Shown: positions 1,148-58,939, numbered from the stretch's first letter. The stretch: 60,238 nucleotides of DNA from Candidatus Nanoarchaeia archaeon (GCA_035290865.1 DATDTM010000027.1:1-60238); one strand, 5' to 3'. The notes: generated from the sequence alone by a model not told the origin. Numbers and translations: made by a program.

Positions 1148-1591
1148 ATGAACAAACAAGAGCTTATCCACAAATTACAGGACATTGAATGGCAAGACTT
1201 TGAAGTAAAAGAAGCAAGAGCGGAAATTCCGAAGAATGTTTGGGAAACAGTAAGTGCTTTTAGCAACACCTCCGGATGGAAGTCATATTATGCCAAGAAG
1301 CCGGTAGTTGAAGGCGACTTTGATTATTATAAGATAACTTTCTATTTAGAGAAGAAAGTAGAGAAGAAAAGTTTTGGGGGCGGAGAAAATGTCCCTGAAA
1401 ATGTCCCTGAAGACAGGAAGGGTCTTATTGTGAAAGAAATTAAAAATAACTCCAAAATAACTATCCCTGAACTTGCTTTAATTTTGAAAGTAAATGAAAA
1501 GACCGTCAAAAGGGACATTGAAAAACTTAAATCTGAAAGAATTATTCACAGAATCGGCCCCGACAAAGGAGGGCATTGGGAGGTAAAATGA
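1148..1591 (+). pseudogene. Internally deleted AlbA_2 (Schlafen-like)/HTH protein
   Basis: N-terminus EWQDFEVKEA...VWETVSAFSNTSG is the start of an AlbA_2 domain. It joins directly to a C-terminal HTH (ITIPELALILKVNEKTVKRDIEKLK...RIGPDKGGHWEV), with the usual middle ATPase-like region absent. A 12-bp tandem repeat GAAAATGTCCCT lies at 1385-1408. Confidence 0.6.
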
Positions 1592-1668
1592 TTAAACCAA
1601 CAAGCATTAAACCAGAACCAAGCTCCACCCGCGAGGGTTACGAACAAGCATACCATTTGGTTATCTAA
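1588..1668 (+). pseudogene. Duplicated 5' fragment of the transketolase C-terminal-subunit gene
   Basis: Translates MIKPTSIKPEPSSTREGYEQAYHLVI*, compared with MPPTPETKSTREGYGQALL at 2612; 19-bp exact repeat TCCACCCGCGAGGGTTACG at 1624-1642 and 2636-2654. Confidence 0.7.
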
Positions 1669-1715
1669 CACAACCAAAAAGCTTAAATATAGCTTAACAA
1701 TTATATCACATAACC

Positions 1716-2069
1716 ATGAACGAGACTAACGAGAAAATACTGCTGGACAATATTAAAGAGTTTACCACTAAAGCTGAAGAAGCAGAGCGGGATACAGCGT
1801 ATAATACTGCTGTAACTTTGTATTTCAAAGCGATTGCGGTGATAGTTGATTTATTCATTTTCAAGAAAGAAAGAATTATTCCTAGTAACCACACTCATCG
1901 GTTCAGGATTCTGGAAGAGAAATATCCCCAGTTGTATGCTCTAGTAGACAAAGACTTTCCTCTTTACCAACATAGTTACAAGCTCAAGTTTAACCAAGAA
2001 TATGCTGAGGTACTGAAGAATGACTTTAAAAAAATTGTTGAATTTACCCAAATTAAGCTCAACCGCTAA
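1716..2069 (+). CDS. HEPN-like all-helical protein (putative TA partner)
   Basis: 117 aa; KAEEAE...YNTAVTLYFKAI...HTHRF pattern resembles HEPN proteins paired with MNTs; no canonical RX4H; directly upstream of an NTase. Confidence 0.55.
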   Translation: MNETNEKILLDNIKEFTTKAEEAERDTAYNTAVTLYFKAIAVIVDLFIFKKERIIPSNHTHRFRILEEKYPQLYALVDKDFPLYQHSYKLKFNQEYAEVLKNDFKKIVEFTQIKLNR

Positions 2070-2610
2070 GAAATTTGCATTAAAATATAAGTTTATTTTT
2101 GATATTGTTATTTATGGCTCTACAGTTAGAGGGAAAACTAAGATTCGAGATGTTGACATAGCAATTATTTGCGGAAAAGAGGTTTCAGTAGGAGAAAAGT
2201 TGGAGCTCGCTCAGGTATTAAAAGCACAGATAAAGCCATTACTCTTGTATGAAATTGATGTTAAGTGCGTAAGCCTTTCTGAATTAATCGACCAAACTTT
2301 TATGGCTAGGGCCGGAATCTTAGCAGAGGGATATTCTTTATTAAAGAAAAGTTTCCTGTCAGTTCAGTTTGGGTTCGAGCCAAGGACTGTTTTTATCTAT
2401 TCTTTAGCAGGGTTAAGCAATTCAAAGAAGACTACTTTTCAATATATTATGAAAGGAAGAAGAGGACAAACAGGATTACTTGTATCTCATAACTGTAAGC
2501 ACTTGGGAAGCGGAGCCATTGCTGTACCATTGATTCACACCGAAGAGTTTAAACAACTATTTGAAAGACAAAAGATTAAATACCAGATGTACTCTACTTT
2601 ATTTTACTAA
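2020..2610 (+). CDS. Pol-beta-superfamily nucleotidyltransferase with extra C-terminal alpha/beta domain
   Basis: DIVIYGSTVRGKTKIRDVDIAII NTase motif; C-terminal ~75 aa (TVFIYSLAGLSN...GAIAVP) resembles Cas2/PaaX-like ferredoxin folds (inference). Confidence 0.75.
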   Translation: MTLKKLLNLPKLSSTAKKFALKYKFIFDIVIYGSTVRGKTKIRDVDIAIICGKEVSVGEKLELAQVLKAQIKPLLLYEIDVKCVSLSELIDQTFMARAGILAEGYSLLKKSFLSVQFGFEPRTVFIYSLAGLSNSKKTTFQYIMKGRRGQTGLLVSHNCKHLGSGAIAVPLIHTEEFKQLFERQKIKYQMYSTLFY

Positions 2611-5298: not shown

Positions 5299-5940
5299 AT
5301 GGCCAAAACAACTAAAAAGAAACTGGAAGAGCCTTTAGAATCTGAAGAAGCAGCAGTAGAAGAGATAAAATTAGCTGAAACTCCTTCAGAGGAGAATAAA
5401 GCTGCTTCTAAAAAGACTAAAATCAAGAGTATTTTAGTGGGAGAGAGAGTTATCACTGAAATCAGCGATGAAGCCAGAGAGCTATATAATCAATCGCGGT
5501 TTGGAACTTTAGCAGAAAGCGGGAAGGTAGAATTATCCTTATTAGAAGGACTTTACCTGGTTGAGAAAGGCAGATTGGACCTGCATAGTGAGAACGGTAA
5601 AGAAGTTAGTATTGAGACTTACATCAAAAAAGCAAGAAAGATCGAGCCTAATTTCTGGATCAGATACTGTGTCTTTAAAGATATTCGGAATCGCGGGTAT
5701 ATTATTAAAACTGCTTTGAAATTCGGGGCAGATTTCCGAGTTTATGATCGAGGAGTCAAACCCGGTGAAGATCATGCCCGTTGGATTGTCTTTCCGGTAC
5801 ATGAAGCGAGCGTCTTTACTTGGCATGAATTTTCTGCCAAGAATAGGGTAGCCCATTCGACCAAGAAAAGATTACTTATTGGAGTAGTGGATGAGGAAGG
5901 AGATGTGACCTACTACGAAATTAAGTGGATGAGGCCGTAA
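5299..5940 (+). CDS. endA: tRNA-intron (splicing) endonuclease catalytic subunit
   Basis: KTALKFGADFRVY (Tyr), GEDH (His), AKNRVAHSTKKRLLIGVVD (Lys) triad; LSLLEGLYL motif. Confidence 0.92.
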   Translation: MAKTTKKKLEEPLESEEAAVEEIKLAETPSEENKAASKKTKIKSILVGERVITEISDEARELYNQSRFGTLAESGKVELSLLEGLYLVEKGRLDLHSENGKEVSIETYIKKARKIEPNFWIRYCVFKDIRNRGYIIKTALKFGADFRVYDRGVKPGEDHARWIVFPVHEASVFTWHEFSAKNRVAHSTKKRLLIGVVDEEGDVTYYEIKWMRP

Positions 5941-33482: not shown

Positions 33483-33636
33483 TGGGCCTGTCCGGACTTT
33501 CTTTCAAGCAATTTAATTAGGTTGCTTGCAATTCGAACCGGAGATCCTCTCGACGTCAACGAGATGTCCTTTGTGGCGATAGAGCTGCACTTTGAATTCA
33601 AAGGGCCGCTCCCCGTAGCCACTAGACCACAGGCCC
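33483..33636 (-). tRNA. tRNA-Val(GAC) with two non-canonical introns (33571-33616 at 20a/21; 33497-33531 at 59/60)
   Basis: Removing 46 and 35 nt yields GGGCCTGTGGTCTAGTGGCT|AGGACATCTCGTTGACGTCGAGAGGATCTCCGGTTCGAA|TCCGGACAGGCCCA, with perfect acceptor, anticodon and T stems; BHB-like junctions. Confidence 0.9.
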
Positions 33637-56835: not shown

Positions 56836-57546
56836 TTATTTAGTGATTAACTTTTTTATCTTTCCGAAATTATAAATCTCTTTTTCTCCGACGGCTAAGA
56901 GCTCAAAGTTGGAGATATCAGTAAGGAAAGGGCTTAATAATTTCTCTTTAAGAATATCTGTGCCTTCTAAGAGAGGATTGAAACTAGGCATGACGATTAA
57001 TTCTTTATTTCTCCATTTCCCTTTCAAGAAACACTTGAATTTTTCTATCTTACTTTTTTCGCGAAGAGTGATGGCTGGATGTTCATGACCGATAATAATG
57101 GTTTTGATGCTTTTGGGGAAGGGCTTAATTTTGTCTCCATGGAGAATAAGAATATTTTTGAGAATTAATTCTTCGACTACTTTAATCTTCATCTTAGCGG
57201 CAATAGTCTGCAGATAGTTATCATGATTGCCTTTGATCAGAATAATTTTTTGGCAATGGTTTTGAATGAATTTTAACACCTTTAGTACATCGTTCCATTC
57301 CTGAGCGGCATTATTGCTGAAGTCGTGTTTTAAATCGCCGTTAATCACGATTATTTTAGGTTTGACTTTTTGAAAGATTAATTTTAATCTCTGAATGATT
57401 TCTTCTACCTGGAATCTGGGAAGAAGGATTCCTTTTTGATGCAGATATTCTTCATAGCCAAGATGGAAATCGCTAAGGATGAGAATCTTTTCTTTAGGAA
57501 GCCAGATTCCTAAATCAATCAGCTCTAAATCTGGGTTGATCTTCAT
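56836..57546 (-). CDS. Calcineurin-like metallophosphoesterase (COG1407-like)
   Basis: LSDFHLG, INGDLKH, KGNHD, LHGD, IGHEHP, MPSFN. Confidence 0.88.
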   Translation of the reverse strand: MKINPDLELIDLGIWLPKEKILILSDFHLGYEEYLHQKGILLPRFQVEEIIQRLKLIFQKVKPKIIVINGDLKHDFSNNAAQEWNDVLKVLKFIQNHCQKIILIKGNHDNYLQTIAAKMKIKVVEELILKNILILHGDKIKPFPKSIKTIIIGHEHPAITLREKSKIEKFKCFLKGKWRNKELIVMPSFNPLLEGTDILKEKLLSPFLTDISNFELLAVGEKEIYNFGKIKKLITK

Positions 57547-57647
57547 TTTTGGTTTGAGGTTAGAAATCTTTATAAATAATTTGGATTAAAAGAGATATTA
57601 TTGTTAGGTAAAGTTATTAAATTAAAACAATAAACAAGTATAATCAT

Positions 57648-57766
57648 GTCCCTGTAGCTTAGCCTGGTTCACGCGGCCAATCAAACTCGACTCGGTCTCG
57701 TAGTATCAAATGCGTTTGATATTCGATTTGGCGTTCGAAGTGCGCTTCGCTTTGCTCAGCAGCACA
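57648..57766 (+). repeat. tRNA-Asn 5'-fragment unit 1 (23-nt tRNA piece, hairpin insert, 27-nt constant tail)
   Basis: GTCCCTGTAGCTTAGCCTGGTTC 57648-57670, then ACGCGGCCAAT..., tail GTGCGCTTCGCTTTGCTCAGCAGCACA 57740-57766. Confidence 0.85.
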
Positions 57767-57810
57767 GTTAACTTAATAAATCACATAAGTCAAAAATATC
57801 AAATTTAATT

Positions 57811-57888
57811 GCCCCTGTAGCTTAGCCTGGTTCACGCGACCAATTACGCTTGGTGAACGTGGTGCGCCTCGCTTTGCTCAGCAGCACA
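57811..57888 (+). repeat. tRNA-Asn 5'-fragment unit 2
   Basis: GCCCCTGTAGCTTAGCCTGGTTC 57811-57833, then ACGCGACCAAT..., tail GTGCGCCTCGCTTTGCTCAGCAGCACA 57862-57888. Confidence 0.85.
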
Positions 57889-57931
57889 ATTAAAAAGATA
57901 AAAAAGCGTCTAGAAAATAATAACATAAAAT

Positions 57932-58006
57932 GCCCCTGTAGCTTAGCCTGGTTCGAGCGAACGGCTGTTAACCGTTAGATCACCAGTTCAAATCTGGTCA
58001 GGGGCG
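57932..58006 (+). tRNA. tRNA-Asn(GTT), intronless
   Basis: GCCCCTG/CAGGGGC acceptor stem, AACGG-CTGTTAA-CCGTT anticodon arm, ACCAG-TTCAAAT-CTGGT T arm, G73. Confidence 0.95.
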
Positions 58007-58084
58007 GCTTTTATTTTTAAGCATATATTTTGAACCATCAAAATATATAAATATCTTTGAAAAATGAAAAATTAAGAGATTAAA

Positions 58085-58939
58085 ATGATTGGAGAAAAAC
58101 TAAGAAGAAATCAGGGAGTAATCTGGGGAATTAGAGAACAAAATTCTCCCGTAGAATCAGATGCCCATTTTTCCAAGAATCTAGAGGCAGCAGTAAAGTT
58201 ATGCGAAGCAGCAGAAGATTATCAAGTTCATTTCCTGGATCATGAATGGTCTTCCGAGGTAAACCTAAGTTTATTTAATCATTTTCTTCGTTGGGGCGTA
58301 AAAGTAGAGTTTGTTTTTCCTGATAATGCTGAGGAACCTGATCATAACCTTTTTTTCTATCAATGTTCAATAGGTTATGGGGGCAGAAGTAATGCTGAAG
58401 GCAGAAGTGAGCAATATTCCCTAGGAAGAAAAGATGTTTTAGAAGCAGTCAGAGATTGGCAAAACCAGCCTGGGTTCAATTTCACTCAGAAAGAAATGTT
58501 TGCTTATATGGATCTACAGGTAGCCGCAGGGAAATATTGGAATTTAGAGCGAAGAGATGCTCTTCCGCTCTCTCCGAAAGCCGTGGATAAGGCTAAATCC
58601 ATGTTTCGATGGTTAGTTGAAAAATATCCCTTATTTGAGGCTAACGAAGGTTTGGATGTTTATAATTTTCCCGGGGCCCAGTTTGATTTAAACTATTCTA
58701 AATTTTCTAGTTGGAAAACTGCTCTGGTGAATTGTTTGACTCAAAGGGTCTTAGAAGTTACTTTTGATGATGAGCGCTCTTCAGTATATTGTTACCAATA
58801 CATTTACCCGCCATTGGAACAGTTGGGAAGAGGAATTGTTACCAGTCGGCATGGTTTCCCAGAGATGAGCAAAGGACAAAGACCAACTATAACTAAACTT
58901 GATGATCTAGTAAAGTATGTAGACTGGGTGAAAGAATAA
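58085..58939 (+). CDS. Hypothetical protein downstream of tRNA-Asn
   Basis: 284-aa ORF; no motif recognised. Confidence 0.7.
   Translation: MIGEKLRRNQGVIWGIREQNSPVESDAHFSKNLEAAVKLCEAAEDYQVHFLDHEWSSEVNLSLFNHFLRWGVKVEFVFPDNAEEPDHNLFFYQCSIGYGGRSNAEGRSEQYSLGRKDVLEAVRDWQNQPGFNFTQKEMFAYMDLQVAAGKYWNLERRDALPLSPKAVDKAKSMFRWLVEKYPLFEANEGLDVYNFPGAQFDLNYSKFSSWKTALVNCLTQRVLEVTFDDERSSVYCYQYIYPPLEQLGRGIVTSRHGFPEMSKGQRPTITKLDDLVKYVDWVKE

Follow-up and report, generated by a model that had tools for sequence, protein, structure and literature searches.

An inherited two-hairpin element headed by a tRNA-Asn 5′ fragment, upstream of tRNA-Asn in a Woesearchaeota subclade

The stretch of DNA analysed here, referred to throughout as the window, is 60,238 nucleotides (nt) long and comes from a Candidatus Nanoarchaeia archaeon (GCA_035290865.1 DATDTM010000027.1:1-60238). 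Between a metallophosphoesterase gene and an intact tRNA-Asn(GTT) it contains two tandem units, each of which starts with the 5′ end of that same tRNA. The 21-mer CCCTGTAGCTTAGCCTGGTTC occurs at exactly three sites in the window (57650, 57813 and 57934; expected number 0) and nowhere else in it. Together with the two preceding bases it makes up the 23-nt 5′ end of tRNA-Asn, starting at 57648, 57811 and 57932, with T in place of C at position 2 in the copy at 57648. The third copy is the head of the sole complete tRNA of the array, tRNA-Asn(GTT) at 57932–58006, identified by ARAGORN and Rfam. In both units the tRNA fragment runs directly into ACGCG(G/A)CCAAT, the start of a core closed by the stem (G/A)CCAA...TTGG(C/T), the loop of which is 47 nt long in unit 1 and 6 nt long in unit 2. 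The closing pair of this stem is changed on both sides, being G-C in unit 1 and A-T in unit 2. Each unit carries the 27-nt tail GTGCGC(T/C)TCGCTTTGCTCAGCAGCACA, which is found at two sites in the window, 57740 and 57862 (expected number 0), with one base different between them. The units measure 120 nt (unit 1) and 79 nt (unit 2), unit 1 corresponding to unit 2 with an insert of about 41 nt within the loop of the (G/A)CCAA:TTGG(C/T) stem. The three tRNA 5′ copies, their common continuation with its closing stem, and the tail with its single difference had been described in a first-pass annotation of the sequence and were recovered here at the same positions. The anatomy proposed there is revised, in that the tail is itself a hairpin and the 'variable core' is a second one. 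The features of the locus are given below; bit scores of units refer to covariance model R1, which was built from seven units.

56836–57546, minus strand: metallophosphoesterase gene (Pfam Metallophos, E 1.7e-10; homologues)
57569–57578: TATA box TTTATAAATA, common to the divergent metallophosphoesterase gene and the tRNA-Asn side
57648–57767, plus strand: unit 1 (long form), whole, 78.4 bits
57648–57670 and 57671–57675, plus strand: 5′ fragment and ACGCG of unit 1
57676–57732, plus strand: hairpin 1 of unit 1, composed of GCCAA, a 47-nt loop with TATCAAA:TTTGATA, and TTGGC
57733–57739, 57740–57765 and 57766–57767, plus strand: linker GTTCGAA, hairpin 2 and final AG of unit 1
57768–57810, plus strand: spacer 1, A-rich, T runs of at most 3, beginning with TTAACTTAATA
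57811–57889, plus strand: unit 2 (short form), whole, 96.2 bits
57811–57833 and 57834–57838, plus strand: 5′ fragment and ACGCG of unit 2
57839–57854, plus strand: hairpin 1 of unit 2, ACCAA TTACGC TTGGT
57855–57861, 57862–57887 and 57888–57889, plus strand: linker GAACGTG, hairpin 2 and final AA of unit 2
57890–57931, plus strand: spacer 2, with 26 A and 9 T, T runs of at most 3
57932–58006, plus strand: working tRNA-Asn(GTT), intron-less (ARAGORN; Rfam tRNA 64.5 bits)
58009–58018, plus strand: oligo-T stretch TTTTATTTTT, the first terminator-like signal downstream of the start of unit 1

Across nine assemblies made from different samples by four pipelines (sources JGI, ENA MEGAHIT, ANAN16-1, which its record names suggest to be a sample series from the Rifle aquifer, and Logan), the 538-nt intergenic region shows a difference of 1 base or none. 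Because the same region recurs in nine independent assemblies, the array is not an assembly artefact, a doubt that the first-pass annotation had itself raised. In scaffold L007, positions 1–95 (L numbers are the handles of sequences compared with the window), unit 1 runs on into GC-rich foreign sequence; this scaffold end is probably chimeric and induced by the repeat.

Core and tail together form a module of 50–95 nt made up of two hairpins. MAFFT failed to align the inner part of hairpin 2 structurally, and the anatomy was therefore defined by manual structural decomposition of ten copies; the covariation reported here rests on these ten, with their kinship not taken into account. Hairpin 1 has a stem of 5 base pairs (bp), (G/A)CCAA:UUGG(C/U), two of its pairs having undergone compensatory change, in unit 2 from G-C to A-U and in L146 from C-G to A-U. 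It is capped in most short forms by UUACGG, read as a UACG tetraloop of the UNCG type closed by a U.G pair, the long form having a 47-nt insert instead. A 7-nt linker, GUYCGUG, connects it with hairpin 2, which is composed of an outer 4-bp stem GURC:GYAC (GUGC:GCAC, or GUAC:GUAC in L146), an invariant bulged A above this stem, a 3-bp stem (GCU:AGC, AUC:GAU or ACC:GGU) with both partners of all three pairs variable, a UC/UC internal loop and an apical stem whose sequence differs from lineage to lineage while its pairing is kept. The unit ends with two more bases, AG or AA in the window. Altogether, compensatory double changes occur at six base pairs of the manual decomposition, one of them also detected by RNAalifold, and the tail of every unit, taken alone, folds into the same hairpin. 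The G.U pairs in hairpin 1 and the flanking CGCG:CGUG helix are consistent with the sense strand only. With model R1, known units score 55–97 bits and ordinary tRNA-Asn genes 10–32 bits, the latter via the shared head only. No family in Rfam 15 matches the units, all hits being to tRNA, apart from a weak match to mir-16 (22.4 bits, below the gathering score) on the opposite strand.

Several other descriptions of the units were set aside. The minimum-free-energy fold of several units is a single long rod formed by pairing of the tail with the tRNA head, with z-scores of only −0.4 to −1.7; in a swap and shuffle test the complementarity of tail and head was notable only in unit 2 (p 0.012), and it is absent from L036, L039 and L069. 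A cloverleaf reading of unit 2 (79 nt) has two acceptor mismatches, 3/4 of the D stem, a 6-nt 'anticodon' loop and no T arm. The units contain no anticodon loop, T arm or acceptor 3′ strand, neither ARAGORN nor Rfam finds a tRNA there, and inspection by eye revealed no C/D box, H/ACA or K-turn motif in them. Coding potential was rejected, the open reading frames (ORFs) between the repeats being at most 42 amino acids (aa) long, with frames over the tails that differ by lineage and indels that are not multiples of three. A CRISPR-like or type III antitoxin-like array was rejected too: its 'spacers' would be mutually homologous, its units are 79–120 nt long, and no conserved nuclease or toxin is linked to it. 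Of an earlier suggestion, a scaffold in which the ends are constant and the core can be swapped, the anatomy survives, namely two hairpins with conserved bases and variable apical parts.

The locus was found in relatives by using the metallophosphoesterase as a syntenic anchor, which yielded 80 syntenic loci; the homologues of this protein are labelled Woesearchaeota or Nanoarchaeota by their sources. One or two units are present at the same position in eight Woesearchaeota lineages, including that of the window. In the unit-bearing relatives the amino acid identity of the neighbouring protein is 88% (L032), 87% (L010), 65% (L146), 63% (L035), 62% (L036 and L039) or 57% (L069). L010 has a single unit, followed by tRNA-Asn, and unit 2 of the window is identical to this unit from GGTGCGCC to CACAATTAA; by hand count, the two units differ at 0/32 positions in the tail and at 9/28 in the core, and their spacers are unalignable. 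The unit cores of L035 and L036 are identical. The arrangement has been inherited within a Woesearchaeota subclade. The units, being tandem and orthologous across species, do not represent separate hits on a D-loop target.

Of 80 other Woesearchaeota genomes, at least 40 have tRNA-Asn itself no more than 1 kb upstream of the metallophosphoesterase gene, in most of them about 55 nt away and often with 1–3 introns. Because tRNA-Asn sits at this place elsewhere, the units fill the ancestral tRNA-Asn slot, the working gene being positioned about 100–135 nt further on. Close relatives provide three states for an empty-site comparison with the window, whose array is fixed across nine assemblies: L010 has one unit, L148 a remnant and L033 none. 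In L148 the unit is deleted, leaving its last ~13 nt and the spacer, and in L033 (82%) the spot is occupied by a tRNA-Asn with two introns, each a perfect bulge-helix-bulge (BHB). Individual loci have further peculiarities. On the minus strand of L032 (~155–60) an insert of about 95 nt, with the inverted repeats CGAAGGACACAA/TTGTGTCCTTCG and ATAGTGGC/GCCACTAT, separates the TATA box from the unit and looks like a miniature inverted-repeat element. In L036 (JBBSWE010000090.1, minus strand 2311–2192) the tRNA after the unit is near-identical to the L035 tRNA-Asn, and its anticodon loop is CTCATAT (CAT, not GTT), which could be an anticodon switch or the mark of a pseudogene.

The head of a unit follows the tRNA of its own genome. 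In 7 of 8 units the 5′ end shows 0–1 differences from that tRNA; compared with the other lineage's tRNA it shows 4–6, which is also the number of positions separating the tRNA heads of the two main lineages. In L010 a T-to-C change in the D loop is carried by unit and tRNA alike. The exception is L036, with four head differences from its own tRNA, three of them in the first 20 nt, the two in stem positions being wobble-compatible. Head length varies from 11 nt in L069 to 23 nt in the window, and copies of the module that stand alone, described below, have no head. In L039 the ~22 nt upstream of the unit and upstream of the tRNA are nearly identical. The match of the heads is ascribed to gene conversion rather than to selection because of this upstream similarity and because the head is short in L069 and absent from the standalone copies.

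At the break point the sequence of the units is GGTT-CACGCG, corresponding to GGTTAGAGCACGCG in many tRNA-Asn genes of Woesearchaeota. After GGTT the units continue with C-A-(C/T)-G-C-G, hairpin 1 and then C-(G/A)-T-G; several Woesearchaeota tRNA-Asn genes read GGTTAGAG-C-A-(C/T)-G-C-G, with an intron at 30/31 that ends in C-(G/A)-T-G-A-A and is followed by GCTGTTAA. The L010 unit and the L033 tRNA have a T/A variant in common (CATG...CATG). The units may therefore depart from the tRNA not by a clean break in the D loop but by losing 4 nt, the 3′ strand of the D stem, and then continuing with positions 25–30, and the resemblance is only suggestive of an origin from an intron-bearing tRNA-Asn copy lacking the D-stem 3′ strand and everything 3′ of the intron. 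The MAFFT alignment did not place the proposed 4-nt gap, and the standalone modules are without the CACG partner.

The break point had also been likened to that of intron 1 of a tRNA-Val (ACG...CACAA). The likeness extends over a few bases only, but the two-intron gene is real: tRNA-Val(GAC), at ~33483–33636 on the minus strand of the window, has a D-loop intron (GGCTA/CGGGG...GCCACAA/AGGAC, slashes marking the intron boundaries) and a T-loop intron, and was missed by both ARAGORN and Rfam. According to a 2026 preprint on Nanobdellota, tRNA-Val is 'missing' in some orders; two-intron genes overlooked by finders could explain this.

The distance from the TATA box TTTATAAATA to the metallophosphoesterase ATG is about 22 nt, and in most relatives the box is also about 22 nt away from where the tRNA or the unit starts (L010, L035 and L036 for units); in the window, about 45 extra AT-rich bases lie between the box and unit 1. 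A bidirectional, apparently leaderless TATA box is kept across Woesearchaeota (window, L035, L036, L070, L086 and others). Between the start of the unit and that of the tRNA no T run exceeds 3 (4 in L146), and a T run of 4–8 is found directly 3′ of every tRNA. The last spacers are A-rich and T-poor, and that of L146, with just 17 nt, leaves no room for a promoter. This pattern of T runs, the A-rich spacers and the short L146 spacer together suggest that units and tRNA belong, at least partly, to one precursor. The unit is located at the ancestral tRNA-Asn slot beside a bidirectional TATA box, and no terminator-like T run precedes the end of the working tRNA. The motif TTAACTTAATA, conserved after units also in L035, L036, L039 and L148, is possibly the TATA box or B recognition element (BRE) of the next gene.

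Judging from sequence comparison, we lean tentatively, and somewhat short of an even chance, towards a unit that is an inherited, co-transcribed and structurally constrained upstream element of the tRNA-Asn precursor, derived from a truncated tRNA-Asn copy and a two-hairpin module. The first 11–23 nt of a tRNA-Asn paralogue, fused to the module, would be transcribed from the ancestral promoter as the upstream part of the precursor and would be removed by the RNase P cut at the tRNA 5′ end. Selection for the fold of the RNA would keep the hairpins, and gene conversion between the tandem repeats would keep the head identical to the working gene. The unit may have originated when promoter, tRNA and module were duplicated and an internal deletion followed, or when the module was inserted into a tRNA copy. 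Tandem duplication of promoter, tRNA and module with internal deletion fits L036, where copies lie on both sides of the tRNA, and L039. In multi-gene tRNA precursors and structured 5′ leaders, upstream RNA is likewise co-transcribed and freed by RNase P at position +1. Unlike known tRNA leaders, the one proposed here starts with a duplicate of the tRNA's own 5′ strand and carries conserved hairpins; to our knowledge, no leader starting in this way has been described.

Several observations weigh against a constrained leader. The deletion in L148, where only the ~13-nt remnant is kept, and the absence from L033 mean that the unit is not essential. Most spacers have a conserved TTAACTTAATATA-like TATA-like box about 30 nt upstream of the tRNA, from which a second transcription start is likely, and the tRNA may depend mainly on this promoter of its own. 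Apparent compensatory changes can also be produced by template switching in DNA palindromes. Since the module occurs away from any tRNA head (L036 and L148), its fusion to a head may be accidental. Lastly, the window-type hairpin 2 matches bacterial repeats resembling repetitive extragenic palindromic (REP) elements over 26 nt and has its core in common with IS200 ends, which points to a history at the DNA level.

On these last points rests the main rival, which we consider unlikely: the module, or hairpin 2, would be a hairpin of the REP or IS200-IS605 type or the scar of a small mobile element, the insertion or integration of which duplicated the end of the neighbouring gene, and it would be kept through recognition by a Y1 transposase or recombinase, not through an RNA function. 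The standalone copies argue for it. L036 has a second copy of the module about 1 kb downstream of the tRNA, without a tRNA head, and a hand count puts its identity to unit 1 of the window (core and tail, the 41-nt insert included) at ~86%; L148 has a standalone short-form copy with a window-type tail. Both abut the stop codon of an 85/87-aa gene, a conserved convergent neighbour of tRNA-Asn, each following a pseudo-copy of this gene's C-terminal coding end. With units following a tRNA-Asn 5′ end and standalone copies following a pseudo-gene end, every copy is therefore preceded by a duplicate of the end of the adjacent gene. In L036, moreover, tRNA and standalone module are separated by an IS200-type transposase (TnpA) gene (1588–2103, plus strand; Pfam Y1_Tnp, E 9e-25), ~200 nt from the module, and the left-end and right-end hairpins of this IS200 have a stem-TGAGC-loop-GCGAA-stem core in common with the reverse complement of the unit tail. 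The same TGAGC/GCGAA hairpin core also occurs in L086, in a T-loop intron of its tRNA-Asn. Three intergenic repeats of a bacterial assembly of 60% GC, CAJDWN01 (L016 1892–1925, L021 and L025; matched sequence GTGCGCTTCGCTTTGCTCAGCAGCAC), match hairpin 2 over 26 nt, the third at 25/26 positions, and have a GTAGG tag on the other strand and inverted partners, as in REP elements. ORF translations from this assembly read, presumably, as HslV, XerC and DapF. Another small hairpin element, accompanied by 22–25-nt repeats of the tRNA 3′ end, occurs in five relatives, and the 23-nt direct repeats at 57648, 57811 and 57932 are of the kind left by att duplication of a tRNA segment.

The end hairpins of IS200-IS605 elements and REP elements are substrates of Y1 (HUH) transposases, and REP elements bear a GTAG tag and are linked to IS200 transposases. 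In two published accounts (PMC2817692, PMC3733652), such hairpins resemble hairpin 2 in being imperfect, 26–38 nt long and interrupted by a bulged base. The hairpin of the units differs from them in not being high-copy, in having no GTAG tag or cognate transposase in the window, and in its fixed, orthologous position, held over a long divergence. Dispersed copies were not found: the 60-kb window contains two, both in the array, and the 7 kb beyond it none. A scan of metagenome contigs on both strands for an exact 19-mer of the tail returned a single woesearchaeal contig, itself carrying an L010-type unit (L028), and model R1 finds no module copy outside the tRNA-Asn neighbourhood in the 80 related-genome loci. 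With tblastn, no Y1 transposase gene is detected in the window or in 100+ loci, L036 excepted. No GTAG/CGTC tag is present beside the window hairpins, the minus-strand foot being TTAACT in unit 1 and TTAATT in unit 2, and no integrase, recombinase or cargo lies between the repeats, which are separated by only 98–140 nt. The bacterial identity could be coincidental (rough chance p ~0.01, from 17 chance 19-mer hits). A BLAST search of plasmids with the bacterial REP-like sequence gave nothing informative, viral contigs show no match to the long-form insert, and 30 viral-contig matches to the hairpin 1 pattern are attributable to chance (at most 17 bits with the covariance model). The first-pass annotation had envisaged repeated hits by a mobile intron or miniature inverted-repeat transposable element. 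A separable module, alone in L036 and L148 and similar to intron hairpins and IS200 ends, accords with that view; independent hits in the D loop do not, given units that are tandem and orthologous.

Less probable again is an independent small RNA acting in trans, in which the tRNA-Asn-identical 5′ segment would be a mimic or seed that might, for example, recruit or compete for a tRNA-Asn-handling factor or base-pair with the 3′ strand of the tRNA, and the hairpins would be a protein-binding scaffold. The conservation of the units is about equal to that of the tRNA itself, and a free 5′ segment followed by two hairpins would suit such an RNA. The stem-position differences in the heads (unit 1 position 2; L036 positions 7 and 13) are all wobble-compatible with the tRNA 3′ strand, but 3/3 compatible changes are expected by chance about 1 time in 8. 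Against such an RNA, L069 keeps just 11 nt of the head, the standalone copies have none, L148 has lost the unit, and no partner protein gene is linked to it. To the same low degree, the units might constitute an undescribed family of small archaeal RNAs, in which a tRNA-Asn-headed two-hairpin scaffold, recruited from an IS200/REP-type element, would be freed from the precursor and act on tRNA-Asn metabolism, for example as a mimic or competitor, or as a patch on the tRNA 3′ strand.

Slightly more doubtful still is a neutral, decaying relic of a local tRNA-Asn 5′ duplication, without function at either the RNA or the DNA level. Its loss in L148 and absence from L033, a copy number of 1–2, a head length of 11–23 nt and singleton variants of unit 1 among the assemblies, which break base pairs, are as decay would have them. 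Yet the adjoining spacers are randomised at a divergence at which the tail shows 0/32 changes, and the identity of the L035 and L036 cores is equally hard to reconcile with decay. The same holds for the six compensatory pairs, for apical stems that are all different and all paired, and for the persistence of the element where the neighbouring protein is only 57–65% identical.

Highly improbable is the reading of the units as split-tRNA pieces, trans-splicing being a further suggestion of the first-pass annotation, or as alternative 5′ exons, the unit head being joined by the splicing endonuclease and a ligase to a 3′ piece elsewhere or to that of the adjacent tRNA: the window has a splicing endonuclease gene (5299–5940, Pfam E 1.9e-28), the genome has non-canonical introns, including the tRNA-Val D-loop intron, and unit heads are still able to pair with the tRNA 3′ strand, but the adjoining tRNA-Asn(GTT) is intact, leaving no tRNA missing, the reverse complement of the tail is not found in the window within 3 mismatches or, as an antisense 19-mer, among woesearchaeal contigs in the exact-match metagenome scan, complementarity of tail and head is not conserved, and the L069 head is too short for a D arm. 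A custom BHB scan likewise found no convincing motif in 57641–58012 joining a unit to a 3′ part or one unit to the other, although it recovers both L033 tRNA-Asn introns and the T-loop intron of tRNA-Val.

Described tRNA fragments resemble the array in part. In Caldiarchaeum subterraneum an orphan 5′ fragment of tRNA-Thr(GGU), tRNA-Thr-F, is located upstream of an intact tRNA-Thr (Sugahara et al. 2012, PMC3293823). As here, the first ~27 nt of the tRNA and its upstream sequence lie on the same strand upstream of the complete gene, and the tRNA locus is a recombination hot spot (PMC3293823). In that genome, however, fragment and gene are separated by 1.8 kb with a recombinase, compared with 98–140 nt and no ORF here, and the state is polymorphic in one population (PMC3293823), whereas the array is fixed in nine assemblies and inherited in eight lineages. 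The present insert, unlike that of tRNA-Thr-F, consists of the conserved module with its two hairpins. Another partial parallel is the split tRNA-Asp of Aeropyrum pernix, with adjacent halves, in which a promoter-driven 5′ piece, a trailer and a further promoter-like element share one strand (Chan, Cozen and Lowe 2011, PMC3218864). Split tRNAs are characterized by a BHB junction, a G/C-rich complementary trailer and leader, and the lack of an intact gene (PMC3218864), none of which is found here.

The array represents a state of tRNA gene remodelling, in the intron-rich DPANN archaea, intermediate between the intron-containing, duplicated, fragmented and split kinds of gene, with the truncated copy holding the ancestral promoter and the downstream copy working. 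It also provides a conserved two-hairpin element, supported by covariation and belonging to no described RNA family, that can now be searched for and tested. Two cautions for annotation follow: inherited leader elements can mimic pieces of split tRNAs, and real multi-intron tRNAs, such as the tRNA-Val of the window, escape standard finders. If the IS200/REP link is real, the locus would be an example of such a hairpin fixed at an archaeal tRNA gene.

The 3′ side of tRNA-Asn has features of its own. In the window a perfect 11-nt palindrome, ATATATTTTGA/TCAAAATATAT, is situated at 58023–58048, just 3′ of the tRNA-Asn terminator, and is followed by a 284-aa ORF (58085–58939) that has no Pfam match and is absent from the 87% relative L010; searches of PDB and Pfam with this protein and with the 85-aa neighbour yielded nothing. 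In five relatives (L010, L039, L043, L069 and L148) a hairpin element of ~47 nt, GGGGTTGATAAGGGGnAAnCCCCTTATGTGAG, without counterpart in the window, lies just 3′ of tRNA-Asn (L010, minus strand ~5745–5675; L148, 3830–3745), flanked by a 22–25-nt direct repeat of the tRNA 3′ end and its T run. The slot between tRNA-Asn and the 85-aa gene, occupied in the window by the 284-aa ORF, is an insertion hot spot. Two PIN/AF2212-like pairs and a methyltransferase are found in L148 (2400–3700), and L147 (3140–3716) has a MazE/ParE pair between the 85-aa gene and the metallophosphoesterase gene.

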